The notes below the pieces were generated by a model. It had not been told where the DNA came from. It was given only the letters and a program-made list of their open reading frames with translations, and ran no database searches. This document shows, in pieces, positions 36,001 through 60,399 of a stretch of 64,000 nucleotides of DNA. The stretch comes from an uncultured Coriobacteriia bacterium (GTDB taxonomy: Bacteria; Actinomycetota; Coriobacteriia; Coriobacteriales; QAMH01). The position numbers and the translations under genes are program-made. The stretch covers positions 162,664 through 226,663 of the forward strand of contig CAOKAE010000001.1 of NCBI GenBank assembly GCA_948466335.1, given 5' to 3'. Every line of letters starts with the position of its first letter. The stretch's first letter is position 1.

Positions 36001-39000
36001 ACAAGGGCAAGACCGCGGTCTACATCTACTACAAGCCGCTCGTCGTGAAGTACATGGTCGAGCACTGGGCCATCTCCGGCGACGGCACGCTCTACGCCAT
36101 CGATGCGGACGGTAACCTCCTGCGCGACGCCAACGGCAACCTCGTGGCGAGCCCCAACGCCGTGCGTGGCGAGCACGAGGGCTACTCCGACGCCCACATC
36201 TACGTCCTGGGGTCTGTCCCCGCTGATGCGGTCGCGGGCACCTACACGACCTACAGCCCCTGGAGCATCGCCGGTTACGAGTACGTGCTCGGCGCCATCG
36301 CGAGCATCAACGGCAAAGGCCCGTGGACCGACGGCATGCTGACGAGCGGCATCTACGTCGCACCCGACGGCACGCTCGTCCTCAAGCTCTACTACGTCGC
36401 CAAGAACCTGACGCTCACCTACGATCCGGGCGCCAACGGCTCCATCACCGCCGGTGGCAATCAGGGGACAGGCCCCGTCGATGTCACGCATCGCGCCGAC
36501 CACACCTTCAAGCTGCCCGCGGCCACCGACGAGAAGCTCACCGTGAGCCGTCCGGGCTACGTGCTCAAGGGTTGGACGACGCTCATGAGCTACGGCGTCG
36601 CCGCTGATGGCAGCATCGTCTCGGCCGATACCGCCGGCGCTATCGTCAAGCTCATCGCCGACGCCAAGGGCGCCGAGGCCGAGGCCGTCATCGCCTGGCT
36701 CGAGAAGCTGGGGACAGACCCCCAGGGCCGTCCGTACTACTACCTCAACGGCGCGACCTTCCTCATGCCCACCGCCAACGAGACCCTGTACGCGGTCTGG
36801 ACGCCGCGCTCCGACATCGTCTACACCGTCGAGCACTGGCTCATCACCGGCGATGGCACCTTCTCGCCGCTGGACAAGAACGGCAACGTCATTCGCGACG
36901 CCAACGGCGCGCTCGTCACCGGCACGCCCAACACGAGCGCCGATGCCTCCGACACCACCAACGCGGCCTACCGCGTCACCTACAACAACGGCAAGTCCGA
37001 CGTCGTCTTCGACCTCGACGCCATCGGCGGCTACGTCCGCACGGTCGCCGGCTACACCTACCTGCTCAACAACGCGAGCTTCACCATCGCGGGCGCGACG
37101 GGCACCACCTACGCCGTGAAGACGATCAGCGCCGACGGCAAGACGGTCTTCTACCTGTTCTACCGTGCCAACGAGAACACGATCCGCTTCGAGGTCGGCT
37201 CGCTCGGCACCATTGACGGCGGCACGCTCGACGCGACCGAGAACGTCAACTTCATCACGCAGAAGCACTACACCGACGACAGCTTCGACCTGGCAGACGT
37301 TCCCACCCCGACGCGTCCCGGCTACGACTTCCTCGGCTGGACCATCGCCGACAAGAAGGGGACAGACCCCATCAACGACGCGATGGGCTACACCGCCCAG
37401 CAGATCGTCACCTGGCTCGAGGCCCAGAACGCGGGCAAGGGGACGTACCTCAAGCTGTTCTTCAAGTCGGGCACGAACTTCACCTACCTCACGCCGACCG
37501 GCGACATCACCCTGCGCGCCGTGTGGACGCCGCAGCTCGTCGACTACACGATCAACCGCTGGAAGGTCACCGGTAACGGCGACAAGGTCGAGCTCGACTC
37601 CGTCACCTACAAGGGCTACGCCGATACCGAGGTCCGCTTCGACGCCGCCAAGACCGAGTACAAGGACGGCATCACCTACCTCAAGGTCGACGTGCCCACG
37701 GGCTATCGCTTCCTGGCCGCGGGCACGAGCGAGATCTACACCGGCACCAACAAGCTGACCCAGTCGTTCAGGACCGACGCCTACGGCAACGTCCTTCCCA
37801 ACGGCACGGCGAAGTTCACGCTCTGGTACCTGCCGAAGACCTTCAAGCTCGAGCTCGAGCTCGGCACCCTGGGCACCTGGAACGACACCACGACGGGCAC
37901 CAACACCGGCACGCTGAAGACCGTCGAGTATGACGCGGAGTCCGTCCACGAGATGCTCGGCTACCTCTCCGCGAGCCGTCCGGGCTACACGCTCGTTGGC
38001 TGGTCGTCCAGCGACTTCAGCGCGCTCAAGGGAGAGGCGTCGCAGGCCAAGTGGCTCGAGCTCGCCGCCTCGGCCGTCGGCGCGGACTGGGTGCGCGTCA
38101 CCACGGTCCTGAAGTCCGACGCCACGGGCACGTCGCTAACCGGCTACACCTACGCCTACATCGCCAACAGCTACGAAAACATCAAGTACATGTACACGAT
38201 GGGCCTCGCGGGCGTGAAGTTCTACGCCGTGTGGCGCGCCAACGACGACACGGTCTACTACGTCGACCACGTCCGCTGGGAGGGCAACAGCACCGCCAAG
38301 ACCACCATCACCGAAGAGTTCCGCGGCATGACCGACAAGAACTACACGGCCGCCCCGTTCAACACCATGCTCGCCGATCCGCGCTACAACACCAGCTTCA
38401 CCGGCTACGGCTACAACGGCACGGATCCCAAGCCCAGCACGGCCACGAAGGCGGTCACCGGCGACGGCACCATGCGCATCACGCTCAACTACTTCGCCCA
38501 GAAGCTCAACCTCACGCTCGAGTCCACCGGCGGCACCTGGTCGACGACCTGGAATCCCGAGCACCTGACCGAGTCGAGCTTCAACCTGCCGACCAACGCC
38601 GACATCAAGCGCCCGGGCTACACGCTCGTGGGCTGGTCGACCACCAATCCCGACGATGGCCTGACCGGCAACATCAAGGGCCTCGCCTCGCAGGTCAAGG
38701 CCGGCCAGCTCGCGGCGATCACCGGCAACGACACCGCCAACGGCGGCGCCAACTGGATCACGGTCGCCACGACCTCCGACGGCAAGACCTACGTCTTCGT
38801 CACGCCGGGCTACAAGATGCCAACGAGGGGACAGACCCTGTACGCCGTCTGGTACGCCAACAACGACACGAAGTACGCGGTCGAGCGTTGGGTCGTCTCC
38901 GGTGACGGCGTCCGCTACGCCCTCAAGGCCGACGGCACGCTCGAGCGCGATGCCAACGGCCTGCTCGTGACCAGCGACAAGGCCGACAGCGCCCATTCGC

Positions 39001-42000
39001 TGAGCTACGTGGGCACCACCGACGAGGAGGCGTGGGCCGACGCCATCGATGGCTCCATCGTCTACCGCACGAACGACACCCTGCTCACCATCACTGGCTA
39101 CGCCTACGCCGCCGATGGCGAGACGATCGTCGCCAAGGACGGCGTCGTGACGATCGGGGGACAGACCCTCAAGACCGACGCCCGCGCGACCATTACCGGC
39201 GACGGCAAGATGACCCTCGTGCTCTACTTCAAGCCGCTGCAGTTCACGCTCGACTTCTACATCGGCGCGACGAGCACGCCCAACCTGAGCGCCACGCCGG
39301 CACGGGCCACGCTCTATGCCGACCAGACCTACACGCTGCCCACCTCGACGGTCACGCGTAGCGGCTACACGCTCAAGGGCTGGACGAACAGCCAGTACGC
39401 GAGCACTGTCGATGCGGCCACGATCATCTCCGACCTCAAGGGCATCAAGTCCCAGAACGCCTACACGGCCGTGAGCGCCAGCACGGGCCGCGATGCTGTG
39501 ACCGGCAAGGTCTTCACCGCCGTGACAAGCGGGGGACAGACCCTCTACATCATGCCGACGGGCAACGTGACGCTCTACGCCACCTGGCGCGCCAACGACG
39601 ACACGCAGTACCTTGTCGAGCGCTGGGTCGTCTCCGGCGACGGCACCCGCTATGCGGTCACCTCCGATGGCAAGCTCGTCCGCGATGCCAACGGCAAGCT
39701 CGTGACCAGCTCGGCTGCCGATGCGAACCACGTCGTCAAGCACGTGGGCATCACCGATGAGGAGGCCTGGGCCGACGCGAACGTGGCCGGAACGAGCTAC
39801 CGCAACGACGATTCCGCGCTCACCTTCGCCGGCTACGCCTTCGCGGCCAACGGCGAGACGGTCATCGCCAAGGACGGCGCGACCGCCTTCACCACCATCG
39901 CCCGCAAGGTCATCACCGGCGACGGCAAGATGGTCCTCGTGCTGTACTACAAGCCCAAGCTCAACACCATCACCTTCAACTTCGGCAGCGGCACGAGCAC
40001 CGGCGCGCCCGCGACGATGCAGGTCTACACCGACCAGACCGTCGAGCTGTCCGCCGATGCCGAGCGCACGGGCTACGACCTGGTCGGCTGGTCCAACGTC
40101 CCGACCTACAGCGTGAAGGTCGACGGTGCCGCCACGGCCGCGACCGTCAACGTCGGCACCTCCAAGGGCCTGGCTTCCCAGGCCGCCGCTGATGCGGCCA
40201 AGGCCAACACCAAGCGCACCTCCGACAAGGGCGCCGCCTTCACCGCCGTGACGATCGGGGGACAGACCCTCTACATCATGCCGACCGACGCGAGCATCAC
40301 GCTCTATGCCACCTGGCGCGCCAAGTCCGACACCGTCTTCTACGTCGACCGCTACAAGGTCACCGGTGACGGCGTGGTCGTGCCCATCGACGCGAACGGC
40401 AAGGACCTCGCGGCCCTCGTCTCGCTGCGCTTCACCGGCGTCACCGACGAGACCGCCACCGCCGGCGCCAAGAGCGGCCCGAAGCCCTGGAACACCGCCG
40501 CCTACGGCGCCCTGGCCGGCTACTACACGATCGCCAACGGCACGAGTGACCGCGTCATGCTCAAGGACGGCAGCGGCTACGTCGTCATGACCACCATCAG
40601 CGCCGGCGTCATCGCCGGTGACGGCAGCCTGCACCTCGTCGTCTACTACTTCCCGCTGGCGGACCGCGTCCTCGACCTCGACGTCGGCGACGGCACCTGG
40701 GAGCCCGGCAAGGAATCCCAGTACAGCGGCAACAAGCACGCCACCGAGTCGAGCTTCACGCTGCCCACCAACGCCGACGTCAAGCGTCCGGGCTACACGC
40801 TCGTGGGCTGGGCCATCGACAAGAACGGCCTCATGGCCGCCGGAAAGGACACCGCCAAGGGCGCGGCGTCGCAGCAGTCCTACCTCACGCTCGCCGCCGG
40901 CAAGACCGGCTACATCGCCGATGGCGGCGCCGAGTGGATCGCCGTGATCTCCGGCTACGATGCGTCGACCTTCACCTACACCTTCATCGGTGCCGATGAC
41001 GTCATCTACGTCATGCCCACGAACGCCAAGGTCATGCTGCGTGCCGTGTGGCGCGCCAACGACAACACGCCGTACTACGTGTCGCGTTGGGGCATCAACG
41101 GCGACGGCGTCGCCTTCCCGTTCAAGCAGGACGGCACGGTCGACATGAACGGCGACCAGATCGTGATCCATGACGATCCCGCGTGGATCAAGGCCAACTA
41201 CGTCGTCCATTACGGCATCACCGACGAGATCGCCTGGGCCGATGCGAACGTCGACGGCGTCTCCTACCGCAACGCCGACAACATCGAGGTGAACGGCTAT
41301 AGGTACCTCCCGACCGACGATCCCGCGTTCGACTCGATCGGCGGCAACCTCAACACGATGGCCCGTGCGGTCATCAAGGCCGATGGCAGCATGGTGCTCA
41401 TGCTCTACTACAACGCCAAGGACAACATCACCTACTCCGTCTACCACGTGCGCGTCACCGGTGACGGTACGGTCAAGAACCTCGTCAAGCAGGAGTTCAT
41501 GAAGAAGAACAACTCCTACGTCACCGTCGACAACCTTGATTACAACGGCCTCGACGACAGCCGCTTCCTCGGCTACGAGTACGTCGACTCCATCGTCATC
41601 AACGGCGTCACCTACTACTCGCATATTGCCGGTAACGTCTACGACGGCCTCATCCTGTATCGCTACTACAAGGCCATCTACGACGAGGGCGACAAGGGCA
41701 TCCACCTCGAGCTCAATCCCGGAATGGGCATCTGGGTGAACACCGGCGAGTCCACGCCGTCGATGATCCCCGGCACCTCGAACAGCTCGCACGACACCTT
41801 CGCCGCCGAGACCACGATCACGCTTCCGGGCGCCGACCAGCTCTACCGTCCCGGCTACGAGTTCGTCGGATGGTCCGACATGCCCGACGGTGCGGATGCG
41901 AAGGGCAACTACTCCGTGATCACGTCCGACCACCTGATGAGCGTCGATCCCGAGACGGGCCAGTACACCGACGTGCTGCGCGCCCTCATCATGAGCCTGC

Positions 42001-44096: not shown

Positions 44097-44116
44097 CAAG
44101 CCGGGGACGATAGGCG

Positions 44117-44214
44117 GGGGACAGACCCTCCGCTTCATCCGCCGGCGAAAGAATGGGGACAGACCCTCCAATTGCAGCTTCCGTATCCGCCGGTGAAAGA
44201 ATGGGGACAGACCC
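44117..44214 (+). repeat. REP-like array, 3 forward copies, starting 21 nt after the giant-gene stop
   Basis: Cores at 44117-44128, 44155-44166 and 44203-44214. The 30-nt units 44137-44166 and 44185-44214 (atccgccgg[c/t]gaaagaatGGGGACAGACCC) differ at one base. Confidence 0.9.
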
Positions 44215-44333
44215 CCGCTTCGGCCCCGGCTTCGAATCTCCGCTTCTGCCCCCATGGTTCGCCCAAGCCCGTGTCATCACGAAGCGATGCTATAATTGCC
44301 CGAGCAGACTGACCTTCGAAAGGCACCAAACGC

Positions 44334-44987
44334 ATGAATAACGAGCCAATGTACAACGCGTTCATCAAGAACCGCGAGCAGGTGGACAATCAGTCGTCAA
44401 AACCCAGGAACAAACGCAAGGGCGATCGCGTCAAGGCGGACGATCTTCCCGATTTCGACTTCGATGTCGAGGAGCCGGGCGAAGACGTCACGAGTGGTTT
44501 TGCCCAGGGCCCGGTAGTCGGTGTCGACAGGACGCTTGGAAGCTATCCGGAGTTTCTCAGGCACGACGTCGAAGACGACGCCTTCGATGCTTGTGACGAA
44601 CCGCTTACCAGCGAGCCGTTCGAATTCGAGGACGGATGCGTCAGCTTGCCCCACCCCGACGTCTTCAACTCGTATCCTCCCGAGGTGCAGCGCAAGATCA
44701 TGGAGTGGACCGACCGTGATATCCGCGCCCGTCGTGATGACGAATCGCGCCGCCAAGATGCGATATTACGAGCCAACATCGCGCGCGACAAAACGAAGAT
44801 GGCCGTTCCCGTCGTCATCGTCATTCTGTGCATCGTCTGCGCGGCGATTACCGGCCTGTATACGAAAAACGCACTCTTCGTGATCGCGTTTCTCGTCGTT
44901 GCGCTCGTCGTGATCATCGCGCTTTTCGTGAGCCGCTACGAACAAAGCAGGCGCGGTCACTTCCACTCTCAATACCCAAAGCCATAA
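44334..44987 (+). CDS. DUF2335-like membrane protein (hypothetical)
   Basis: 217-aa ORF. The central LPHPDVFNSYPPEVQRKIMEWTDRDIRARRDDESRRQD resembles the DUF2335 signature (PPP..l..Y....P....I...........R), followed by two hydrophobic helices (MAVPVVIVILCIVCAAITGLY, ALFVIAFLVVALVVIIALFV). A terminator follows. Confidence 0.55.
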   Translation: MNNEPMYNAFIKNREQVDNQSSKPRNKRKGDRVKADDLPDFDFDVEEPGEDVTSGFAQGPVVGVDRTLGSYPEFLRHDVEDDAFDACDEPLTSEPFEFEDGCVSLPHPDVFNSYPPEVQRKIMEWTDRDIRARRDDESRRQDAILRANIARDKTKMAVPVVIVILCIVCAAITGLYTKNALFVIAFLVVALVVIIALFVSRYEQSRRGHFHSQYPKP

Positions 44988-45005
44988 GGCAGGCATACGT
45001 CGCAC

Positions 45006-45032
45006 AAGAGCCCCTTCCTGGGGCTCTTTTTT
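45006..45032 (+). terminator. Rho-independent terminator
   Basis: AAGAGCCCC (45006-45014), a 5-nt loop, then GGGGCTCTT (45020-45028) running into a T6 tract. It lies 19 nt after the 44334..44987 stop. Confidence 0.8.
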
Positions 45033-45073
45033 CGTGCCATCAACCAGGAGTCTCAAATGGGGGTCTCAAATGG

Positions 45074-45130
45074 GGGTCTGTCCCCCTATTGCCACCTGCC
45101 AGCCGAAGCCTTGATCGGGGGTCTGTCCCC
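45074..45130 (-). repeat. REP-like pair, 2 reverse copies upstream of the RAYT-type gene
   Basis: GGGTCTGTCCCC at 45074-45085 and 45119-45130. Both are followed by the reverse complement of the second arm (ctattgcca / tcattagca). They are preceded by a 13-nt tandem partial duplication at 45051-45076. Confidence 0.9.
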
Positions 45131-45299
45131 TCATTAGCATCGGGGCAGTGGAGGCATGGCCGTATCTGCATTTACTCGGAAACCGCTCCGTTTCCACTTC
45201 GATTGATGTCCGAGATTGCTCAGATTCCCGGGGTGGTTTGCTCGGATGTTTCCGATGTAGTCTGTTTCCGCAGAAGACCTGACGGAAAGGAGGTGCAGT

Positions 45300-46097
45300 G
45301 TGCCGCGCCAGCCACGCAGACAATCGTCAACCGGGTATTACCACATCACGAATCGCGGCGTTGGCAAAGCGCGCGTCTTTAGCGACGGCAACGACCACTC
45401 GTTTTTCATAGATTGCCTGCGACTTGCGCAGCGGGTCTGTCACTTCAGGGTTCTCGCATATTGCATAATGACCACGCATTTCCACATCGTCATCAAGTGT
45501 GAGGGCGCCGTTCCAACACCCCTTTTCCAGAGCATAGGAGCACGATTCTCGGCCTATTACCATAAGAGGCACAAATGCTCTGGGCAAATATTCCAGGGTC
45601 GTTTTCGCAGCGAGGCCATCGAGACGGACAGGCACCTTCTCTCTGCGATTCGCTATGTATGGCGCAATCCCGTCAAGGCCCACCTCTGTTCCTACCTGGC
45701 CGCCTATCCGTGGAGTAGCTACAATTGCCTGGGCAAATCGGGTGGCTTGATCGACGACGAGCTCCTTTGCAGCTTCATGAGTGCCGATGAGTGGCGGGCC
45801 TTTGCGTTGCAGGAGACGGACGGCCGTCATCTCGAGCCCTTCCCTCTGCGACTGTCGGACAGTTTCGCTCGGAAACTGGTCCGTGAGGAATGTCGACAGT
45901 TTGGCGATGTGCCGAGGGATGCTCTTGAGAAACCAGAATGCCCTCCTGCACTTGCTATGTGCTTGGATGCGGGGATGACCGTGGCGCAGATTGCCAGAAT
46001 CCTGAACATCGCCGCAACTGGTATGTATCGTGCATTGCGTAAATGGGGTCGGCAGGTTCCGAGGGCATGCACTCTCGAAGCGTCGAGTAGTCCGTAA
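45300..46097 (+). CDS. IS200/IS605-like HUH Y1 transposase of the REP-associated tyrosine transposase (RAYT) type, with a C-terminal HTH extension
   Basis: GTG start 6 nt after AAGGAGG (45287-45293). N-terminus PRQPRRQSSTGYYHITNRG..RVF...DHSFFIDCL. HUH motif in VLAYCIMTTHFHIVIK. GQIFQGRFRSEAIETDRHLL. Catalytic-Tyr motif AIRYVWRNPVKAHL...YPWSSY. C-terminal MTVAQIARILNIAATGMYRALRKWG looks like an HTH. Confidence 0.85.
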   Translation: MPRQPRRQSSTGYYHITNRGVGKARVFSDGNDHSFFIDCLRLAQRVCHFRVLAYCIMTTHFHIVIKCEGAVPTPLFQSIGARFSAYYHKRHKCSGQIFQGRFRSEAIETDRHLLSAIRYVWRNPVKAHLCSYLAAYPWSSYNCLGKSGGLIDDELLCSFMSADEWRAFALQETDGRHLEPFPLRLSDSFARKLVREECRQFGDVPRDALEKPECPPALAMCLDAGMTVAQIARILNIAATGMYRALRKWGRQVPRACTLEASSSP

Positions 46098-46191
46098 TCA
46101 GGCAAACAATCGGGATTGACCGCCCCGTCCCTCGAAAGATTTGGTACTCTGTCGAATAACAAACCAATTAACCTTTCGAGAGGATAATAAA

Positions 46192-47457
46192 ATGCCCCAG
46201 GACATGATAAGCGTCGATGAAGCACGTCAAAGAACGATCGCCCTCGCGAGCGAAGCTCGTTTCAGGACGCCGGTCGAGAAGGCTGACCTATTCGCCGCTG
46301 TCGGACATGTTGCTGCAGCCGACCTTTCGAGCGATATCGACGTCGCTCCATTCGACAATACGGCAATGGACGGTTTTGCCGTGGTCGCGTCCACTCTCGA
46401 GGGTGCCAGTGAGGACAGCCCGGTCGAGCTGGATATCGTCGATTGGGTCGGTGCGGGGGTCGTCAGCCAGGTTGTCCTCAAGCCCGGCGAGGCGATTCGC
46501 ATCATGACGGGCGGTATCATGCCGGAAGGAGCCGATGCCGTTGTCAAGATAGAGGATACGACCTTCACCGGAGACGGTGGTGTGGGCGAGCGTGTCCGCA
46601 TATGCGCTCCCGTGACCAAGACGAACGTGCGCAAGGCGGGCGAAGAGGCCAAAGCGGGTGATGTCATCGTTCGCAAGGGCGAGGTGATTCGCGCCGCGAC
46701 CGTCGGATTGCTCGCAAGCACCGGAAACACGACCATCCCCGTGTATGCCCGTCCCAAAGTCGGCGTCATCAGCATCGGCACCGAGCTCGTCGCGCCTCCG
46801 GCAAAGCCCGAACCGGGAAAGATTCGTGATGCGAATGCGTACGTGTTGGGCGCCTATGCGCTTGATCTCGGATGCGAAGTGAACCTATACCCGATTGTCG
46901 AAGATGACGAGACGGCCATTCGTGCCCTATTCGAGCGGGCGATTGACGAGTGTGACTTCGTCGTTTCGAGCGGCGGGGCGAGCAACGGCGATTTTGATTA
47001 CGCCATCGAGACCGTACGCGAGTTGGGCGAGGTCGTCTTTGACTGCGTGAGCCTGAGGCCGGGCAAGGCCCAGGCGTTCGGTTGCGTGGGCGACACGCTC
47101 GTCGAGGTCCTTTCAGGCAATCCCGCTGCCGCGGCGGTGGGCTTCCAGCTTTTCGGCCGTCCTGCGCTACGCGCCATGCAGGGATTCGTGGAGCTTGACC
47201 GTCCGGTCAGCGACGCCGTTCTTGCGCAGCCGACGCGTAAGAAGGAGCCCCGCGCCTTCTATCAGAGGGGACATCTCGAGGTGGGGGAGGATGGTCAGCT
47301 GCTCGCATGCCAGGAGGAAAAGCAGTCGTCCGCCCTGCTGTCAGAGATGAATCGTAGCACCGTGCTCATCGAGCTTCCGCAAGGCACTGGCACGTTCGAA
47401 GCTGGAACGCCGGTCAAGTGCCTCCACTTGGATATTGACGAGGGCGTTGTTATCTAG
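46192..47457 (+). CDS. moeA: Molybdopterin molybdotransferase MoeA
   Basis: ATG 46192 lies 8 nt after GAGAGGA; the ORF-track start 46141 is a TTG extension. Motifs FDNTAMDGFAV, IRIMTGGIMPEGADAVVKIEDT and SGGASNGDFDY. 421 aa. Confidence 0.9.
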   Translation: MPQDMISVDEARQRTIALASEARFRTPVEKADLFAAVGHVAAADLSSDIDVAPFDNTAMDGFAVVASTLEGASEDSPVELDIVDWVGAGVVSQVVLKPGEAIRIMTGGIMPEGADAVVKIEDTTFTGDGGVGERVRICAPVTKTNVRKAGEEAKAGDVIVRKGEVIRAATVGLLASTGNTTIPVYARPKVGVISIGTELVAPPAKPEPGKIRDANAYVLGAYALDLGCEVNLYPIVEDDETAIRALFERAIDECDFVVSSGGASNGDFDYAIETVRELGEVVFDCVSLRPGKAQAFGCVGDTLVEVLSGNPAAAAVGFQLFGRPALRAMQGFVELDRPVSDAVLAQPTRKKEPRAFYQRGHLEVGEDGQLLACQEEKQSSALLSEMNRSTVLIELPQGTGTFEAGTPVKCLHLDIDEGVVI

Positions 47458-47479
47458 GCCCAGCGATACGTTGATAGTG

Positions 47480-47512
47480 GAAACCGCCTCCTTCGCGAGG
47501 CGGTTTCTTTTT
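47480..47512 (+). terminator. Rho-independent terminator after moeA
   Basis: GAAACCGCCTC (47480-47490), loop cttcgc, GAGGCGGTTTC (47497-47507), then TTTTT. Confidence 0.85.
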
Positions 47513-47528
47513 GCCCCGATGGCAGCAT

Positions 47529-47614
47529 GGGGACAGACCCTCTTGTGCCGTACGTAATAATTCGGGGACAGACCCCCGACAATAGGAGGATACCGACAAT
47601 AAGGGGACAGACCC
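47529..47614 (+). repeat. REP-like array, 3 forward copies
   Basis: Cores at 47529-47540, 47564-47575 and 47603-47614. The third has the arm ccgacaataa. Confidence 0.9.
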
Positions 47615-47731
47615 CCGAATTCGACCCCCGAATCCCCGCCCTCAAGCCCTCTCGAGCTCATGGGATGGCCGTCTCCTCCGCATTGTCGCGCTGGGTATAA
47701 TTGCCTCGACAAAACCGTTTCGAGGAGACCG

Positions 47732-48561
47732 ATGTCCGCCCAAACTCCAGATGAGAAGTACGACGCCTTGGTCATTCGCCTTCGTTCCCTCAAAAACGTG
47801 GCGGTCGCCTTTTCGGGCGGCGTTGACTCCACGTTGTTACTGCACGCCGCGCACGAGGCGCTTGGCGATAGGACGGTTGCGATTACGGCGCGATCGCGCC
47901 TTTTCCGCAACGCGAACTCGACGAAGCCGTTGCGTTTTGCAATGACCGCGACATTCCGCACGTCATCGTCAACACGCACGAGCTCGAAGACGAGATGTTC
48001 CGGCAAAATCCGCCCAATCGTTGCTATATCTGTAAAACGGGGCTACTGCGCGCCGTTATCGACGTCGCGAACGGGCGCGGGGTCGACCATATCGTCGAAG
48101 GGTCTAACACTGACGACGAGAGCGACTATCGTCCAGGTGCGCAGGCAATACTCGAGCAGGGGGTGATGAGCCCGCTCAAGGACGCTGGTCTTTCAAAGCG
48201 CGAGATACGTGATTTGTCGCGAGAGAAGGGTCTTCCCACCTGGAGCAAACAGTCATTTGCGTGTCTTGCCTCGCGCTTTGCGTTCGGTGAGGTCATTAGC
48301 GAGGAGCGCCTTGGCATGATCGACGCAGCGGAGCAGATTCTTCTCGAAAGGGGAATTCGACAAGTTCGCGTGCGCTTTCATGGGGCAATCGCGCGTATCG
48401 AGGTGCAGCCGGATGATTTCGCGCATCTTGTCGATTCGGATGTTCGAGAGGATGTTATCCGAAACATCAGGGCGCTTGGATTCAAGTATGTGACGCTTGA
48501 CCTTGGAGGCTACCAGACAGGCAGCATGAACATGACAATTGGGGGACAGACCCTCAACTGA
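47732..48561 (+). pseudogene. LarE-like PP-loop ATP pyrophosphatase / sulfur transferase (COG1606 type) interrupted by a -1 frameshift
   Basis: The upstream frame (ATG 47732, RBS GAGGAG) gives VAVAFSGGVDSTLLLHAAHEALGDRTVAITARSRLF. The downstream frame, open from 47872, gives PFPQRELDEAVAFCNDRDIPHVIV...NPPNRCYICK...DYRPG...FACLASRF...VRVRFHGAIARIEV...YVTLDLGGYQTGSMN. Adding one C at about 47905-47906 (ttcc_gcaa) fuses both frames into a 276-aa protein. Confidence 0.8.
48542..48553 (+). repeat. REP-like copy forming the last codons of the larE-like gene
   Basis: catgacaattgGGGGACAGACCCtcaactga is translated MTIGGQTLN-stop. Both the arm and the core are present. Confidence 0.9.
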
Positions 48562-48752
48562 GATTCCCAACTGAAATCTCCAGTTGAGCCCCCATTAAGC
48601 GGGTTCCAATTACCCGGGAGCCCACCCTCCCACCTTTGGCCGGTGTGCCGGCTTCGCTCCCCGTCGTTCTCAATCGCGCTCGACCGCGCAAGCCTGTGAC
48701 CGATGTCCTATACTTGCAATCAATCTATCTATCGTTTGCACAAGGAGAGCTC

Positions 48753-49172
48753 ATGAGCGAATCACGCGCAGGTTGGTATCCGGATCCTTCGGGTAATCCG
48801 TCGAAGCTTCGATACTGGGACGGAAGCCAGTGGACCGATGACTATGCGGATAGCCCCTCGAATGCGCAGGATACGCCGGCATCCGAAGAGGCCCTATGCC
48901 AGGTGCAGGCTGTCGATAGCGCGCAGGTTTCATACGGCATGACCTCGCAGGACTCGACGCTGCGCCTCATCGCTTTCGTTTTCTGCCTCATTTCCACTGT
49001 GACGGCGGGATGGATGCTCATTCCTTTGGCGTGGATGATTCCGATGTCCGTACATGCTTGGGGAATTTACAAAGGAAAAAAGCCGAACACCGTCGCATTT
49101 GGCGTGTGTACGCTGATTTTCGTGAGCCTCATAGGCGGCATACTGCTCCTCGTTTCCAAAAAGGACGCCTAG
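48753..49172 (+). CDS. DUF2510-domain membrane protein (hypothetical)
   Basis: ATG 48753 follows AAGGAGAG. N-terminus GWYPDPSGNPSKLRYWDGSQWTDDY (DUF2510-type motif). The C-terminal half has hydrophobic helices (LIAFVFCLISTVTAGWMLIPLAWMI, AFGVCTLIFVSLIGGILLLV). The ORF-track start 48636 is probably an extension. Confidence 0.6.
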   Translation: MSESRAGWYPDPSGNPSKLRYWDGSQWTDDYADSPSNAQDTPASEEALCQVQAVDSAQVSYGMTSQDSTLRLIAFVFCLISTVTAGWMLIPLAWMIPMSVHAWGIYKGKKPNTVAFGVCTLIFVSLIGGILLLVSKKDA

Positions 49173-49207
49173 CTTCATTCCGCAAGATGATGGGTGGGTG
49201 ACAAGAG

Positions 49208-49328
49208 GGGGACAGACCCCCTCTTCGTGCTGGCCCCCCATCCCGCGCACCTCCAAGCGCCTGCTCGACTTGGGGCCGAGCAATCGCGCGTTGCGGTTCT
49301 CCCTGCGTAACAATATGGGGACAGACCC
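49208..49328 (+). repeat. REP-like copies, 2 forward
   Basis: Cores at 49208-49219 and 49317-49328. The first sits in a 9-bp perfect palindrome, aagaggggg-ACAGA-ccccctctt (49203-49225), with the arm gtgacaag. Confidence 0.9.
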
Positions 49329-49441
49329 CGCATTCCCCGCACACTTTATTCAGTTCGTCATATAGTGTGCACGTACGCCACACAATGGCCACCAGCCCTG
49401 CGTCATGACAACGCGGGAGAGAGCGGAAGTGGGTTCACCTT

Positions 49442-50746
49442 ATGAAGACCAGCAAGATCAAGAAGGCCGACGGCAAGATCATCCTCGAGGTGACTGCCAG
49501 CGCTGATGACGTCAACAGGGCATTCACCCTCGCAGAATTCGACTTTGCCAACTCGATGGGCATCAACCCCGAACCCGGGAAGACCATCGAGCAGGTCGCC
49601 GAGGAGAAGATGGGCATCAAGAACCTCGACTCCATCATCGAGGCCAACGCTGTCGAGGCGCTCGCGCCCTTCGCGGTCGACCAGAGCGGTATCGCCCCGG
49701 CGTTCCCTCCGCATCCCACGCCCAGCACGGCGCTCAAACGCAATCAGGAATTCGCCTTCACCATGGAGGTGACCCCCAAGCCGGATTACGAGCTCACCTC
49801 GTACGATCCCGTCGAAATCACCCTTCCCGAATTCACCATCAACGAGGCCGAGGTCGACGCGCAGATCCAACAGCTTGCCGAGCGCAACACCACCTACGTC
49901 GCCGCCGACCCCAAGCCGCTTGCGAAGGGGGACGCGTGCCTCCTATCCATCAAGTGCTACGAGGATGGCAAGGAGCTCACCGGCCTCACCACCGAGGGAC
50001 GCACCTACGTTGCGGGCGAGGGGTACATGCCCGCCGACTTCGACGCGCACATCTTCGACATGGAACCGGGCGAGACGCGCAAGTTCGTTTTCGAGGGCCC
50101 GAGCGTCGACGAGAATTACAACGAGTTCACGCAGAAGTTCGACTGCGAGGTCACGCTGAAGGAGATCCAGAAACCCGTCACTCCCACCATCGATGACGAA
50201 TGGCTTGCGACGAACCTTCCCATGTACAAGAACCTCGAGGACCTGCGCAGCGAGATTCGCAGGAGCATCGAGCATCGCGATTCCGAGCAATACGAGGCGT
50301 ACAAGCGCCAGATGGTCGCAAGCGCGCTCGGCGAGCGCTTCGAGGGCAAGATCGCCGACGAAGTGTACGAGAACGCGCGGGACAACCTCATGAAGAACAT
50401 TCGCATGGGCCTTCAGCAGCAGGGCATGAGCTGGGAAGACTACGTGCAGCAAAACGGCGGCGAACAGCAGATGAACATGATGCTCATGCTGCAGACGCGC
50501 GAGATGGTCGTGCAGGGATACGCGCTCGACGCGATCTTCCGCCACGAGAACCTCGGTCTTTCCGAGGATGATATCGACGAGGCATGCCACATGATGGCGC
50601 CCCAGGTCAATCCCAAGCAGGTTCGCCAGCAGATCGAGAACGAGGGCAAGAACTTCGTGCTCCGCGAGTCCGCGGAGCGTCTCAAGGCGAACAAGTGGGC
50701 CGCTGACCAGGCGAAAGTCACCATCCAGAAGCAGCCGCAGGCCTAG
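49442..50746 (+). CDS. tig: Trigger factor
   Basis: 434 aa with the trigger-factor layout: an N-terminal domain; a linker FTMEVTPKPDYELTSYDPVEITLPEFTINEAEVDAQIQQLAERNTTYV; an FKBP-like middle (KGDACLLSIKCYEDGKEL...GYMPADFDAHIFDMEPGETRKFVFE); and a helical C-terminal arm domain. A terminator follows. Confidence 0.75.
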   Translation: MKTSKIKKADGKIILEVTASADDVNRAFTLAEFDFANSMGINPEPGKTIEQVAEEKMGIKNLDSIIEANAVEALAPFAVDQSGIAPAFPPHPTPSTALKRNQEFAFTMEVTPKPDYELTSYDPVEITLPEFTINEAEVDAQIQQLAERNTTYVAADPKPLAKGDACLLSIKCYEDGKELTGLTTEGRTYVAGEGYMPADFDAHIFDMEPGETRKFVFEGPSVDENYNEFTQKFDCEVTLKEIQKPVTPTIDDEWLATNLPMYKNLEDLRSEIRRSIEHRDSEQYEAYKRQMVASALGERFEGKIADEVYENARDNLMKNIRMGLQQQGMSWEDYVQQNGGEQQMNMMLMLQTREMVVQGYALDAIFRHENLGLSEDDIDEACHMMAPQVNPKQVRQQIENEGKNFVLRESAERLKANKWAADQAKVTIQKQPQA

Positions 50747-50774
50747 TCGACGCCAACATAGCGCGAGGAAATCC

Positions 50775-50813
50775 GCGCCGAAGGGGGTCCGCCTCCTTCG
50801 GCGCCTTCTTTTT
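50775..50813 (+). terminator. Rho-independent terminator after tig
   Basis: GCGCCGAAGG (50775-50784), a 10-nt loop, CCTTCGGCGC (50795-50804), then cttcttttt. Confidence 0.8.
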
Positions 50814-50824
50814 GATGGCAGCCG

Positions 50825-50969
50825 GGGGACAGACCCTTCCATACCATCGCAGGCGAAAACCGGGGGACAGACCCCTAACTCCGACTCCGGGGTCCCATTC
50901 GTGACAGCTAGGGGACAGACCCCGCGAACCGATTCCATGAGCCGACCCCGCAAATCGGGGGACAGACCC
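50825..50969 (+). repeat. REP-like array, 4 forward copies
   Basis: Cores at 50825-50836, 50863-50874, 50911-50922 and 50958-50969. Spacings are 38, 48 and 47 nt. Confidence 0.9.
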
Positions 50970-51010
50970 CCCATGGAACGACCCCATGAACTCCGCATGT
51001 CGCCGCATGC

Positions 51011-51063
51011 AAAAAGGCACCGAAGAGACCATTGGGCAGGAGAGGTCTTTTTCGGTGCCTTTC
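51011..51063 (-). terminator. Hairpin terminator (bidirectional-looking) for the minus-strand PPIase gene
   Basis: aaaaAGGCACCGAAGAGACC...GGTCTTTTTCGGTGCCTttct. On the minus strand the stem is followed by TTTTT. It lies 33 nt past the stop at 51096-51098. Confidence 0.75.
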
Positions 51064-51095
51064 TCGGCAGAGGACTTAAAGGGGGATGGTGGGTA

Positions 51096-51521
51096 TCAGT
51101 CCCTCACTTCGAGGAGCTTGACCCAGTACACGATGTCCTTGCCTGCGAGAGGGTGGTTGAAATCGATGGTGGCCACCTGGTTCTCAACGCTCACCACCTT
51201 TGCCGGAATCGGCTCGATATTGCGCGGGGAGGTCCATCCGATGTACTCGCCAACAGGCAGGTTTTCACCATTGGGAACCTTGTAGGTGGGGAAATGCTGC
51301 ACGGCGCTCTCATCGTATTCGCCGTAGGCGTCGGCTGCGGCGAGCTCGACGGTGCGCTCCTCGCCCGGCTCCATGTCGAGCAAGGCGTCCTCGAGGGCCT
51401 TCATGACCTGACGTCTGCCGAGGACGATCTCGTGGGGCGCGCCTCCGCAGTCATCGAAAACCTCGCCGTCGGGAAAGCTGCCGCGATACAGAAAGCATGC
51501 GGTCTGTCCTTTGTCTGCCAT
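51096..51521 (-). CDS. FKBP-type peptidyl-prolyl cis-trans isomerase (SlyD-like)
   Basis: 141 aa from ATG 51521 (MADKGQTACFLYRGSFPDGEVFDD...EIVLGRRQVMKALEDALLDMEPGEERTVELAAADAYGEYDESAV...IDFNHPLAGKDIVYWVKLLEV). The ORF-track start 51644 is an unlikely extension. Confidence 0.75.
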   Translation of the reverse strand: MADKGQTACFLYRGSFPDGEVFDDCGGAPHEIVLGRRQVMKALEDALLDMEPGEERTVELAAADAYGEYDESAVQHFPTYKVPNGENLPVGEYIGWTSPRNIEPIPAKVVSVENQVATIDFNHPLAGKDIVYWVKLLEVRD

Positions 51522-51585
51522 GCCGGTCCTTTCGTTGCGCAGGCAGCGTCGCGAAAGACGCCTCTGCTCGTTCGAGGATGGTTGT

Positions 51586-51750
51586 CTAGTGCCAGCGCTG
51601 CGAGGTGAGGAAGAATCCCTCGACGGGCTTGATCTCGCTGTCATCGTCGACGAGATCGGCGGCGAGCTCCTCGGCGTTGTTGCAGATTGCGCTCACGGGG
51701 GCTTCGATCTCTTCGACCTCTGTCTCTTCGGTAATCTTCTCGTCAGCCAT
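51586..51750 (-). CDS. Small acidic protein (54 aa, hypothetical), not in the ORF track
   Basis: ATG 51750-51748 follows GGAGAGGAAACC. It translates to MADEKITEETEVEEIEAPVSAICNNAEELAADLVDDDSEIKPVEGFFLTSQRWH-stop (TAG 51588-51586). High GC3, same strand as the PPIase gene and 64 nt upstream of it. Confidence 0.45.
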   Translation of the reverse strand: MADEKITEETEVEEIEAPVSAICNNAEELAADLVDDDSEIKPVEGFFLTSQRWH

Positions 51751-51984
51751 GGTTTCCTCTCCTCTTCATCGGATGCAGGGTCGCCAGACTCTGGCGAGCG
51801 CGCCCTCATCACCTATGCGAGAGCGACCCGTATGAAATTCCGGCGTCCATCAGATGGTAGTTCCCAGCTCAGCGCCTGCATATCGTATGAAAGGTATGAG
51901 ATTGGTCGCGAACTATCAAACTCCTCGCTCGATGACTTGCTGCTCACCGAGACGATAGGGTGTGCATCGATGATGGATAGCGGA

Positions 51985-52047
51985 GGGTCTGTCCCCGGAT
52001 TATCAACATCATCCCATGGCGAAGGTCGTGACGAAGGGTCTGTCCCC
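51985..52047 (-). repeat. REP-like pair, 2 reverse copies in the divergent intergenic region
   Basis: GGGTCTGTCCCC at 51985-51996 and 52036-52047. Confidence 0.9.
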
Positions 52048-52079
52048 CTTCTTCCCAGAGAGACATTCAGGAGGAAATC

Positions 52080-53363
52080 GTGATTCGAAACGTCGATGGT
52101 GATTCCGGCGCAAGCGAAGGTGCGCGGAGGTACCAGAATCCGGTGCTCGTGGGCATCGTCTTGCTCGTATCCGGAATATCGGTGGCGATGATCCAGTACA
52201 AGGTCCCCACCATCATGACGAATCTCATGGGCATCTTCTCGATGGATGCGGCGACAGCCTCGTGGCTCATGTCGGTCTTCACGCTCGTGAGCATCTTCGT
52301 CGCGTTGCCCGCGGGCGCCCTTGCACAGCGTTTTGGCGCCAGGCGGATGCTCGTTGTCGCATGTGGCATCGTCATCCTCGGTTCGCTTGTCGGCCTTGTC
52401 TCCGAAACGAGCCCGATGCTCATCGTTTCGCGGGCGATCGAAGGCGCCGCGCTTACCATCCTCACGACATGCGGGCCGATTATCGTTCAGCAGAACGTGA
52501 GTCCCGAGAAGGTCGGCACCTCGATGGGCATCTGGGGCATCTGGGGATGTCTCGGGTCCACCGTCGCGGCCGTTCTCACGCCGACCGTTTTCGGCATGTG
52601 GGGATTTGACGGCCTCTGGATCGCGTTTGCCGTGGTCAGCGGCGTTGCGGCTGTCCTCGTCCTGGTCTTTATCCGCAAGCCTCCGTCCGCCCCTGCAGCG
52701 CCCGAGGGTCTGTCCCCCGATCGCCATGCGCCCCAGGGGTCGTCTCAGGGGTCTGTCCCCGCAATGTCAGGTGAGGCAACGATTGTCGAGAAGCCTCGCT
52801 ATCGCGACATGTTCTCCAAAGACATGTTCCTGTTCTTCGGGGCCTTCGTTGTCTACAACATCTGCATGCTCGCGATTCTGGCGTTCGTCCCCACGATTCT
52901 GCAGATGCAGGGCTTCGACCCGACGCTCTCGGGCATCATCAGCACGGCGCCCATGTTGCTCTCGATCATATCGTCGCCGCTCTTCGGAGTCGTCTCCGAC
53001 AAGATCGGCCGCAACAAGCCGCTGCTGATCATCGCCATGCTCGTCATGGGTCCCTGCACGTTTTTGCTCTACACGCAGACCGGGCCGTTGCTCTGGGTGG
53101 GCGTCTTCGCGATGGGACTGCTCGGCATGGGCGGCATCGGCCAGTATCTCTCGGGATTCACGAAGCTGCTGCCGAGTCCCGACCTCGCGTCGGTGGGCAT
53201 GGGAGTGCTCGTCACGTTTCAGGGCGTCGGTCAGTTCCTCGGCACGTTTTTCGTGCAGATGCTTCTGGGGCCGCAGCTGACCGAATGGTGGTTTGCCGGC
53301 ATGGTGCTCATGCTTCTCGGCTTCGTCGGCACGGCGCTCATCGCCCTGTGCAAGCTACGGTGA
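52080..53363 (+). CDS. MFS transporter
   Basis: GTG 52080 follows AGGAGGA. 427 aa with about 12 hydrophobic helices in two halves. MFS loop motif ALPAGALAQRFGARRM between helices 2 and 3. Confidence 0.85.
   Translation: MIRNVDGDSGASEGARRYQNPVLVGIVLLVSGISVAMIQYKVPTIMTNLMGIFSMDAATASWLMSVFTLVSIFVALPAGALAQRFGARRMLVVACGIVILGSLVGLVSETSPMLIVSRAIEGAALTILTTCGPIIVQQNVSPEKVGTSMGIWGIWGCLGSTVAAVLTPTVFGMWGFDGLWIAFAVVSGVAAVLVLVFIRKPPSAPAAPEGLSPDRHAPQGSSQGSVPAMSGEATIVEKPRYRDMFSKDMFLFFGAFVVYNICMLAILAFVPTILQMQGFDPTLSGIISTAPMLLSIISSPLFGVVSDKIGRNKPLLIIAMLVMGPCTFLLYTQTGPLLWVGVFAMGLLGMGGIGQYLSGFTKLLPSPDLASVGMGVLVTFQGVGQFLGTFFVQMLLGPQLTEWWFAGMVLMLLGFVGTALIALCKLR
52706..52760 (-). repeat. REP-like doublet (reverse) translated inside the MFS central loop
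   Basis: GGGTCTGTCCCC at 52706-52717 (read as GLSP) and 52749-52760 (read as GSVP). The reverse complement carries the arm ctgacattgc. Confidence 0.9.
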
Positions 53364-53369
53364 CAATGC

Positions 53370-53416
53370 GGGGACAGACCCCTGGCTGTCCGGACTGACA
53401 ATGAGGGGACAGACCC
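53370..53416 (+). repeat. REP-like doublet (forward) immediately after the MFS stop
   Basis: Cores at 53370-53381 (arm gtgacaatgc) and 53405-53416 (arm ctgacaatga). Confidence 0.9.
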
Positions 53417-53720
53417 TCGGATCGCCCCTCGATCGCCCCGCTTGCATTTGGACGCTTCTCACCATCTTTTCACCTGCGCGTTTGCCGCACATATCACATG
53501 CGTCATACTTTTTATACGATGGTTTCACCTTCCCTCAGACGATATATTGAAACCGCAAGTAGGGGGTTGTGTCGATGCATCATGTGCGCTGTGTCTCTCG
53601 TGGTCGCGGGGAGTCGCAATGCCGTCACGCGGGCCACGCCCTTCATCAAAAACGCCACTCTCCGGGGGGGGGTGCACTCGCAGTGCATGCAGTGCGCTGT
53701 GCGAGTCAAGGGGGCGTGTC

Positions 53721-55241
53721 ATGGGGGAAGTAGTACCAGAGCGGGAAGCCGAACAAACCGCGGAGCGCAAGCCAATCGGCGGCAACGAGGCAGATTTCGA
53801 GGCCGTCCTCATCGACGGCATACTCGGCTTCAGCCTTTCTCTCGGCAACGCCATCCTATTGCTGGTCGGGGCGGTGACGCATGCCGGCTCCTTCTTCGAC
53901 TCCGCGGTCATCACCGTTATCGCCGCTCTTGTGTCCGCGGCCTTCTTCAAGATCGTCCAGCTCAAGACCGATGCAATCTCCCGGCGCCTTCCGCGTGTCG
54001 CCTTCGTATGCGGTCATGCGGTGTGCTTCCTCGTCGCCATCGTCGGCATGTACCTGGGGCTCCAGTACCTTATCGCCGTGGCCGCGGCGCTTGGCCTGGC
54101 TGACACCCTCATCCTCTACGGGCGATTTCTCGCGGCACTCGCCCGCAAGGCCCTCATGCTCGTCGTGGATGCGGCCTTTCTGTACCCTGGCATCATGCTG
54201 ATGGTCATAGTCAACGTGCCGTGGCCCTATGACACGGTCATTCTCTCGGCCATGGTGCTCGTCACGATCGTCGTCGCCCTTCTCTTCATCCGGCGAAACT
54301 ACGACTTCGGAGAACTCATCAGTGCCGCCGATTCGAAGGCGCGCAGCATCAAGGCCAAAGGCAATGTCCATACGCTCTTCCTCGTCGGCTTCATGATCAG
54401 TGCGTTTCTGCTCTTCAACTCGCTGCCGTTTACCCTGGAAATATCGAACACCGCGCTGGGCCTGGCCTTTGCGCTTGCGGGTATCGGATCGCTGCTCATG
54501 CGCCAGATCAACGAACGCGGCACGAAAGATGCGATGCGCAAGACCACGGGACTCGCCTCCCTCGTCTTGCTCCTGCCGCTCATGCTCGTTCCCGGCGAGA
54601 TACAGCTCGTGCTGCTCGCGTGCTATAGCTGCTATGTCGTTCTCGAGACGCTGACCATACTCGACGCGATCGTCGAGACCGTCCGCTTCAACCTCATCGC
54701 GGCCATGTGGCTCATCGGTAAGGAATGCTCGGTATTCTTTGGCGGCATAGCTGCGGGTGGAGCGATATTTGCGCTGTTTCCCTGGATCGCCCGCGTGCTA
54801 GGTCCCGAATACGCCATGCTCATCCTGTGCATCGTGGTGGCCGCGTTTTGCGCGTGGCTGCAGATAAAGGTCAACTACCAGGTCTACCCCTATGAGCCCA
54901 TCATCGAGGAGGAGGTTGACGAGGAGGTGACCGCGCGCATCGAGCGCAACGGTCGTCGCAAGGACCTCTGGCATCAGAAGATTGATGCCGCCTGCGAGCA
55001 ATATCGCCTGTCACCTCGCGAACGCGAGATATTGCCCATCCTGCTGAGGGGCCGCGACGCCAAGTACATCATGGACACCTTCTACATCTCGCAATCCACG
55101 GCCAAGACGCACATATATAACATCTACCGCAAGTTCGGCATCCATTCGCGCCAGGAGCTTCTCGACTTCGTCGAGGACATCGAGTTCATGGAGCTTGAGA
55201 TGCCCGATGAAGCGGAGCGCCCAGACGATTCCGCGCAATAG
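53721..55241 (+). CDS. LuxR-family transcriptional regulator with an N-terminal multi-pass membrane domain
   Basis: ATG 53721 follows AAGGGGG. About 8-10 hydrophobic helices, then a C-terminal GerE/LuxR HTH (LSPREREILPILLRGRDAKYIMDTFYISQSTAKTHIYNIYRKFGIHSRQELLDFV). The ORF-track extension from 53442 is Cys-rich and unlike a protein. Confidence 0.8.
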   Translation: MGEVVPEREAEQTAERKPIGGNEADFEAVLIDGILGFSLSLGNAILLLVGAVTHAGSFFDSAVITVIAALVSAAFFKIVQLKTDAISRRLPRVAFVCGHAVCFLVAIVGMYLGLQYLIAVAAALGLADTLILYGRFLAALARKALMLVVDAAFLYPGIMLMVIVNVPWPYDTVILSAMVLVTIVVALLFIRRNYDFGELISAADSKARSIKAKGNVHTLFLVGFMISAFLLFNSLPFTLEISNTALGLAFALAGIGSLLMRQINERGTKDAMRKTTGLASLVLLLPLMLVPGEIQLVLLACYSCYVVLETLTILDAIVETVRFNLIAAMWLIGKECSVFFGGIAAGGAIFALFPWIARVLGPEYAMLILCIVVAAFCAWLQIKVNYQVYPYEPIIEEEVDEEVTARIERNGRRKDLWHQKIDAACEQYRLSPREREILPILLRGRDAKYIMDTFYISQSTAKTHIYNIYRKFGIHSRQELLDFVEDIEFMELEMPDEAERPDDSAQ

Positions 55242-55242
55242 G

Positions 55243-57561: not shown

Positions 57562-57669
57562 AGCCAAGGCAAGGTACCGGTTCGCGCCGGCGGGAGTGTC
57601 CTTGCCAGACGACTGGATCACGAACGCAAAGTGCAATGCAGGTTGAGAGAGAAGAGGAAAGGAAAGAGC

Positions 57670-60357: not shown

Positions 60358-60399
60358 CGGGAAGACGGCGTCTCGACCGAGGCGCGCGGGTGATAGGCG

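Follow-up and report, generated by a model that had tools for sequence, protein, structure and literature searches.

The 64,000-nucleotide stretch of Coriobacteriia DNA analysed here (the window) contains both a large family of short hairpin repeats and one gene for a 265-amino-acid (aa) HUH/Y1 single-stranded DNA endonuclease/transposase, and the question that the locus raises is whether this protein made the repeats. The repeats are recognised by the 13-mer GGGGACAGACCC[CT], which with at most one mismatch would be expected 0.12 times in the window and occurs 48 times. An earlier note on this DNA had proposed a repetitive extragenic palindrome (REP)/REP-associated tyrosine transposase (RAYT) system in an actinobacterial lineage. 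The co-occurrence of gene and element family in a Coriobacteriia clade bears out that proposal; the enzyme, however, appears to belong to the TIRYT type (subclass 2.1) and not to the canonical RAYTs with GTAG-tagged REPs. We consider it likely that the 265-aa protein is the cognate enzyme that generated the hairpin family, and that it probably still turns the family over; its binding and cleavage of the repeat are what we infer from the comparisons below. Judged by its sequence features, the locus would be a REP/RAYT-like system of the TIRYT type.

The link between enzyme and repeat is drawn because the genes of homologues, in dozens of other lineages, have on both sides inverted hairpins that share a nearly identical core. 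For a metagenome scan the broad family alignment (A3) was too diverse, and a narrower alignment (A7) was used; this confirmed 571 loci, 80 of them were retained, and 69 had enough flanking sequence. The heptamer GGGACRG lies in plus orientation within 300 nucleotides (nt) upstream and in minus orientation within 200 nt downstream in 42 of the 69 loci, and on at least one side in 58. The bracketing hairpins of the family consist of a nearly invariant 12-nt core, GGGGACGGTTCT, and complementary stems that are lineage-specific. The stem adjoining the core has at least five perfect base pairs in 103 of 167 instances, compared with about 20 of 167 when the flanks are re-paired at random, and 74 distinct stem sequences are found among these instances. 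Stems that vary and yet remain complementary represent covariation, which favours a hairpin recognised by its centre and not by its stem. The local core GGGGACAGACCC is identical to GGGGACGGTTCT at eight of 12 positions.

The same architecture is present in distant homologues (27–35% identity), both on low-GC contigs that are apparently of Firmicutes type and in Propionicimonas. Three loci (L012, L017 and L018) carry TGTCA-nn-GGGACGGTTCT-nn-TGACA upstream in plus and downstream in minus orientation, with the core GGGACGG; the proteins of these loci share the C-terminal '...EPSP' because the downstream repeat overlaps the stop codon. In Propionicimonas (L013) the inverted repeats are 55 nt long and each contains two copies of GGGGACGGTTCC. 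The flanking inverted repeats of TIRYT genes share the motif GGGGWSAS (GGGG[AT][CG]A[CG]) (Di Nocera 2013, PMC3733652). This motif is matched exactly by the core GGGGACAG in the window (GGGGTCAG in L009), and at seven of eight positions by GGGGACGG, which the bracketing repeats of the homologues carry; next to the gene in the window, copies are present on a single side. Moreover, in L009 and L010 (52% ortholog) the entire repeat population has the core GGGGTCAGACCC, with A changed to T at position 5, and the left arm GTGACACGAT. This shift suggests that the core drifted together with the enzyme lineage.

High local densities of such repeats are seen elsewhere in the family. The contig of a Clostridiaceae homologue holds nine copies of GGGACAGGTC in 18.5 kb at 30% GC, and the ancestral core GGGACGGTTC is dense at three further loci, with 12 copies in 8.1 kb at 39% GC (L031), nine in 9.1 kb (L029) and seven in 6.6 kb (L058). 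Repeat expansion may thus be recurrent in this enzyme subclass. A separate observation concerns a 29%-identical homologue in Planctomycetota (L006), in which an exact GGGGACAGACCC occupies positions 6388–6399 in the first codons (MARVRRGDRPGVW...); this is the sole copy of the 12-mer in 16.8 kb and may be a coincidence.

Within the Coriobacteriia, copies of the element are present in nine of nine loci with an ortholog. The gene moeA, which lies downstream of the enzyme gene, has homologues that fall into a clade of at least 61% identity, all others being at 51% or below. No such enzyme gene lies 5' of moeA in one member of that clade (L100, 61%), in Eggerthella lenta (L101) or in a further Coriobacteriia locus (L102), and the 14–21 kb around moeA in each of these three contain no copy of the element, a pattern consistent with a link between enzyme and repeat.

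The earlier note had described the enzyme as an HUH/Y1 protein with a Y-x3-NP motif and a tail resembling a helix-turn-helix (HTH), and each of these features is confirmed by conserved columns or a domain match. The HUH motif stands in the context TTHFHIVIK, and the tyrosine motif, RYVWRNPVKA, is followed by YPWSSY at residues 136–141. In an alignment with 38 homologues the HUH, Y-x3-NP and YPWSS columns are invariant or nearly so, and the tyrosine motif aligns with DYIYINP of the Escherichia coli TnpA-REP (4ER8). In addition to HTH_7 (E = 5e-4), the tail matches HTH_23 (E = 0.16), and HTH_29 and Sigma70_r4_2 more weakly than HTH_7. An AlphaFold model built on the 38 homologues (mean predicted local distance difference test score 82.8) places helices in the tail at residues 216–223, 228–234 and 239–249.

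The enzyme appears to be of the REP-associated kind, nearer to it than to the TnpA of IS200, as the earlier note had also proposed, and both profile and fold searches support this. In a hidden Markov model search NCBIfam REP_Tyr_transpos scores 71.1 bits (E = 8.9e-20; curated cut-off 80) versus 21.5 bits for Pfam Y1_Tnp, the IS200-like family (gathering cut-off 23), which is matched by all 38 aligned family members at E <= 0.01. The closest fold in the PDB is 4er8_A, a structure of the E. coli TnpA-REP in complex with a REP hairpin (E = 1.6e-7), with a target-normalised template modelling (TM) score of 0.72 and a root mean square deviation of 2.9 Å over 146 columns at 17% sequence identity. 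Transposases of IS608, ISDra2 and IS200 are matched at E of 1e-4 or higher, a thousandfold weaker than TnpA-REP. A PDB search by sequence alone is nearly blind to this relationship, with 4er8 at E = 0.32.

By architecture and motifs, the enzyme fits TnpA-REP subclass 2.1, the TIRYT proteins. Subclass 2.1 is defined by a long protein with an HTH_23, HTH_28 or Bac_DnaA_C domain, is equated with the TIRYT proteins of Di Nocera 2013 (PMC3733652), and occurs in 15% of strains; its repeat motif does not resemble a DnaA box (Quentin 2018, PMC6006769). The tails of the 38 family members match HTH_23 in eight cases, HTH_28 in two and Bac_DnaA_C in one. Relatives of the enzyme are called 'putative transposase' in the databases, and terminal inverted repeat (TIR) families have been reported only as 'moderately abundant' (PMC3733652, PMC6006769).

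The gene behaves as a resident of its locus. A scan with one genome per species returned three uncultured Coriobacteriia metagenome-assembled genomes (MAGs), with one locus per MAG, and tblastn detected exactly one copy per locus, both in the related loci and in the window; copy number is based here on the MAG scan and the loci. The gene order giant surface protein, membrane protein of 208–217 aa, enzyme, moeA is kept at enzyme identities of 94, 79, 70, 52 and 51%, the immediate flanks in the window being the gene for a 217-aa membrane protein and moeA. All orthologs are 260–265 aa long, and a dN/dS of 0.07–0.10, with dS up to saturation, indicates purifying selection. Neither a tnpB-like neighbour nor a second copy of the gene is present in the window. 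These observations support the earlier suggestion of a domesticated, single-copy gene without insertion sequence (IS) ends or tnpB, and indicate vertical inheritance. The gene might instead be the transposase of an active IS200/IS605-type insertion sequence, as the weak Y1_Tnp match and the database name of its relatives would have it, but such elements would not be expected to keep one copy per genome at the same locus across species with a dN/dS of about 0.08 and dS to saturation, and the gene has no subterminal inverted pair around it, no tnpB, and a fold nearer to TnpA-REP. We regard this alternative as very improbable.

The repeat itself is built as TGGCAAT-nn-GGGGACAGACCCY-nn-ATTGCCA. 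Its full form, TGRCAAT-nn-GGGG-ACAGA-CCCY-nn-ATTGYCA, is a palindrome of 31–35 nt, and the consensus across related loci is TGGCAAT-n-GGGGACAGACCC[CT]-n(3)-TTGCCA, with no GTAG. One full copy, GATGGCAATTGGGGGACAGACCCCCAATTGCCAGT, folds as single-stranded DNA at -16.7 kcal/mol (z = -7.7). The element is represented by TGGCAATAGGGGACAGACCCCTATTGCCA and its 22-nt half-unit by TGACAATGCGGGGACAGACCC; many copies consist of the left arm and core only, which is the form described in the earlier note. The exact 12-mer occurs at 1.5–2.0 copies per kb in 20-kb related loci and at 1.45 per kb in the last 32 kb of the window. A search of Rfam with positions 44–64 kb (E <= 1) matched no family, and in the literature searched the 12-mer and GGGACGGTTC led only to unrelated primer sequences.

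Copies lie both between and within genes. Sixteen, which encode GTDP or (V/M)T(I/S)GGQTL, are in frame in an open reading frame (ORF) of 14,685 aa; they are confined to its last 12.5 kb, and its first 31.5 kb are free of copies. Two more (52705–52760, minus strand) are in frame in the central cytoplasmic loop of a major facilitator superfamily (MFS) transporter gene (52080–53363), where they encode ...EGLSPDR...QGSVPAMSGE...; L007 has the same insertion (17266 and 17303). A copy at 48542 encodes the last residues, TIGGQTLN*, of a PP-loop protein. Most intergenic copies lie past the intrinsic terminator of the upstream gene, a placement more in keeping with selfish insertions that are tolerated than with RNA elements. 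The plus strand is C-rich throughout, with the giant gene dominating, so that the replication strand is not assignable from GC skew, and because almost all genes are on the plus strand the orientation of the elements relative to transcription is inseparable from that relative to replication.

Comparison with relatives shows that copies are gained and lost between strains. Behind the giant gene, units of 22 nt and 37 nt are present or absent between the window and its relatives, insertions of 39 nt and 87 nt occur elsewhere, and in L001 two cores are just 10 nt apart. A 10–15-nt unit whose first bases belong to the core (GAC|CCC and the right flank) is duplicated in tandem after 14 of 88 copies, compared with 0.5% of control positions; these duplications comprise the one upstream of the enzyme gene and 13 others (window, L002, L007 and L009). 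In other lineages, the left arm and part of the core are duplicated instead. We considered these half-element duplications as indicators of a single nick site, but their junctions are spread over core positions 2–9 and no site is claimed.

This turnover also bears on the possibility that the family is a fossil, once amplified by the enzyme and now changed in copy number by slippage and recombination only, with the enzyme kept for another reason. Several of the indels amount to a tandem duplication or a deletion between adjacent copies, half-element duplications are common, many copies are degenerate or have no right arm, and the copies within genes are shared by relatives as distant as 79% enzyme identity, all as a fossil family would predict. 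However, at 13818 of L007 there is a complete 33-nt palindromic copy where the window has none, and it has no adjacent copy on which to slip. In addition, all catalytic residues are under strong purifying selection, and the exact cores are far more uniform than their flanks. We therefore judge a fossil family to be quite unlikely.

A further alternative is that the domesticated Y1/HTH protein serves the host in another way, such as regulation through the HTH or the processing of replication intermediates, and that the 13-mer family is unrelated to it. The 13-mer would then be a motif of the uptake or polar type, a site bound by a protein, or a hairpin in RNA. Copies are everywhere, so that adjacency is uninformative; their strands are biased as in polar motifs, and one copy doubles as a terminator-like hairpin. 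Moreover, an invariant leader box suggests that the gene is regulated, and the literature reports no REP family for the subclass (Quentin 2018, PMC6006769). An unrelated motif would nevertheless have to match, in both architecture and core, the inverted repeats that bracket genes of the enzyme's family in many unrelated lineages. Its copies would also have to occur in tandem clusters that vary between strains as discrete units of 22–39 nt and to lie mostly beyond terminators, outside transcripts, and without an Rfam match. On this evidence another host role with an unrelated repeat is improbable.

Several points weigh against the protein being the cognate enzyme of the repeats. No repeat is nearby in 11 of the 69 metagenomic loci, and none was found at the distant actinobacterial homologues P0053 (L014–L016), so that the association is not universal. 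The co-occurrence within the Coriobacteriia is one phylogenetic event and not a set of independent ones, as covered by the 14–21 kb per outgroup. In the window no inverted pair spans the gene and there are no IS ends, the usual bracketing of the family being absent. With the element present in 11 of the 12 intergenic spacers that exceed 70 nt between 44.1 and 64 kb (in two of these 11 on the minus strand only), the two copies upstream of the gene do not go beyond expectation, and their orientation is opposite to that of the usual left repeat. The NCBIfam and Pfam scores are both slightly under the curated cut-offs, and the arrays could have grown by slippage or recombination instead of transposition. 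Finally, REP association was not found for subclass 2.1 (Quentin 2018, PMC6006769).

If the protein is the cognate enzyme, then by analogy with the E. coli TnpA-REP and IS608 TnpA it would recognise the hairpin where DNA is single-stranded, as at replication forks. Tyr119, together with a metal ion bound by the HUH motif, would cut the strand and form a covalent 5'-phosphotyrosine link. Rejoining of the strands would then excise, copy or insert units of 22–35 nt, often beside existing copies, which would produce direct arrays. The gene itself would no longer be mobile, its right-hand repeat having been lost and the upstream copies being ordinary members of the family. A more specific reading is that a TIRYT-type enzyme, of a subclass credited so far with no REPs, actively drives repeats that are among the densest and shortest known (22–35 nt at about 1.5–2 per kb) and may cut within the conserved hairpin loop, inserting in-frame peptide-coding units into genes that include that of the 14,685-aa surface protein. 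Cutting in the loop would resemble rolling-circle Rep proteins, whereas IS608 and the E. coli TnpA-REP cut at the foot of the stem. We put this forward only tentatively and think it doubtful as a whole.

Both REP/RAYT systems and TIRYT genes are already known, and the locus shares features with several of them. Like TIRYT/TIRtron (PMC3733652), which is subclass 2.1 (PMC6006769), it has a long Y1/HUH protein with a C-terminal HTH and a YPWSS serine motif after the tyrosine, its homologues have flanking inverted repeats, and GGGGACAG fits GGGGWSAS. It differs in that the repeat is a short hairpin at about 1.5–2 copies per kb, arranged in direct arrays and also found inside genes, that the bracketing pair has been lost, and that the host is a Coriobacteriia clade. 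The E. coli REP/TnpA-REP system (4ER8; Nunvar 2010, Ton-Hoang 2012, Messing 2012) provides the best fold match and likewise combines a single-copy domesticated gene having HUH and Y-x3-NP motifs with genome-wide imperfect palindromes of 20–40 nt in intergenic clusters. In contrast, the repeats described here have no GTAG tag, the protein is 100 aa longer and has an HTH, the copies in an array mostly share one orientation and do not form alternating (BIME) units or inverted doublets (REPIN), and the conserved part is the centre of the hairpin and not the foot of its stem. Of the features of a canonical RAYT (Nunvar 2010), the HUH and catalytic tyrosine motifs, a single vertically inherited copy, and abundant palindromes related to repeats adjacent to the gene are found at this locus; an inverted pair around the gene and a GTAG tetranucleotide at the 5' end of the repeat are not.

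The IS200/IS605 TnpA proteins (IS608 and ISDra2) share the HUH/Y1 catalytic core and provide a mechanistic model in their recognition of hairpins on single-stranded DNA, and the strand-biased distribution of the element recalls their lagging-strand targeting. However, the gene studied here is immobile, has no left or right element ends (LE/RE) and no tnpB, and scores under the Y1_Tnp cut-off. As in the Pseudomonas REPIN-RAYT system (Bertels & Rainey 2011, 2017), a vertically inherited single-copy enzyme is accompanied by dependent short repeats that are abundant in the flanking spacer. Here the unit is a single hairpin or a 22-nt half-unit instead of an inverted doublet, and with a conserved core of 12–13 nt the 16-mer definition applies only loosely. 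In-frame copies tolerated as extra peptide, such as GTDP/GGQTL in the giant protein and those in the central loop of the MFS transporter, resemble Rickettsia palindromic elements and intragenic REPs, and REPs inside genes have been reported before (Di Nocera 2013, PMC3733652). The Rickettsia elements are 100–150 nt long, compared with about 22–35 nt for the units here, for which a candidate enzyme is present.

To our knowledge, work on REP/RAYT systems has been done almost only in Proteobacteria, and we know of no substrate family or role for the HTH-bearing subclass. A REP-like population for this subclass, a hairpin with a conserved centre and a variable stem, an expansion on this scale and an example from the Coriobacteriia appear not to have been described in the searchable literature. 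Together with the 69 metagenomic loci, the window gives the HTH-bearing subclass a candidate substrate, a hairpin whose 12-nt centre is invariant and whose stem can vary freely. This substrate is massively expanded in one gut Coriobacteriia clade, and would number thousands of copies per genome if the sampled regions are typical. The repeat would be a practical marker for the uncultured clade, and it introduces in-frame variation into surface and membrane proteins. Recognition, the cut site and the purpose of the HTH could be tested with a short oligonucleotide and one purified protein.

The features of the gene and its surroundings are collected in the table.

Table. Features of the enzyme gene, its flanking spacers and the element family (positions in the window; empty cells, no value given)
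Feature	Position	Strand	Remarks
HUH/Y1 single-stranded DNA endonuclease/transposase gene with C-terminal HTH	45300..46097	+	265 aa, intact ORF, GTG start
Ribosome-binding site AAGGAGG	45287-45293		7 nt 5' of start codon
HUH motif codons H60-F61-H62, metal-binding site	45477..45485	+	H60 and H62 nearly invariant in family alignment
Catalytic tyrosine motif Y119-V-W-R-N123-P124	45654..45671	+	Y119 and P124 invariant, N123 nearly invariant
C-terminal helix-turn-helix, aa 217-249	45948..46046	+	HTH_7 E = 5e-4 and model helices
Intrinsic terminator of upstream gene (44334-44987)	45006..45034	+	Kept in orthologous loci; elements lie beyond terminator
Element copy 1	45062..45098	-	Core GGGGACAGACCCC 45073-45085, left arm GGTGGCAATAG 45086-45096
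Element copy 2	45107..45141	-	Core 45118-45130, degenerate left arm GCTAATGA
Tandem duplication of 13-nt unit (GTCTCAAATGGGG twice on + strand)	45050..45075	-	Abuts copy 1, starts inside copy 1 core
Leader box and TAnnnT -10-like hexamer	45229..45263	+	Box CGGGGTGGTTTGCTCGG 45229-45245; hexamer 45258-45263
Degenerate downstream copy of the earlier note	46104..46130		Part of spacer/leader 5' of moeA, not an element
Element family, GGGGACAGACCC[CT] with at most one mismatch	31565..61681		48 copies in window

The two reverse-orientation copies that the earlier note reported upstream of the gene are indeed present, with exact GGGGACAGACCCC cores on the minus strand 215 and 170 nt before the start codon, and minus is the minority orientation, the exact 12-mer occurring 38 times on the plus and nine times on the minus strand of the window. 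The pair is kept in the window, L001, L007, L008, L002 and L003. The further argument, that these copies represent the inverted flanking typical of RAYT genes, is a weak one because nearly every spacer holds copies, and in L009 (52% ortholog) the upstream copies are on the plus strand, so that the orientation is not kept.

Nearer to the gene, the leader box and the TAnnnT hexamer, 55–70 nt 5' of the gene, are invariant in eight of eight orthologous loci, and the rest of the spacer diverges. The box lies 17 nt before the conserved TAnnnT, in the place of a -35 element or an operator, and together they are probably the promoter or operator of the gene. The leader box CGGGGTGGTTTGC resembles GGGGACGGTT only with an indel; it might be a relic of the ancestral left repeat, but we do not claim this.

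On the other side of the gene, the doubtful downstream copy of the earlier note had to be rejected. We considered it as a relic of a right-hand repeat, but it has no match to the local core, and its resemblance to the ancestral core does not rise above chance, the window containing 67 matches to that core with at most two mismatches where 100 are expected. Its heptamer GGGACGG occurs only in the window and in the 94%-identical relative, and not in the other orthologous loci. A separate conserved box, GGTACCCTGTCG, lies about 45 nt 5' of moeA at 46140–46165 (plus strand) of the window and in the same place in L001, L002, L003, L007 and L009; the three outgroups lack it 5' of moeA, and it has no match in Rfam.

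Three of the genes that carry copies, or adjoin them, show features of their own. The giant ORF occupies positions 39–44096 (plus strand), is rich in repeats and has a counterpart of 15,059 aa in L007; its C-terminal end, made up of TPRTGDD, a hydrophobic segment and RRRRQ, resembles a cell-wall anchor of the sortase type. The PP-loop-like gene (47660–48561, plus strand) is in two overlapping frames (47660–48166 and 47995–48561), which is a frameshift or an assembly error, the L007 counterpart being one gene of 286 aa. Right after a GerE-family gene (53442–55241), a minus-strand copy of the element at 55237–55259, with complementary flanks and a run of T, forms a terminator-like hairpin on the plus strand and may have been co-opted as a terminator.

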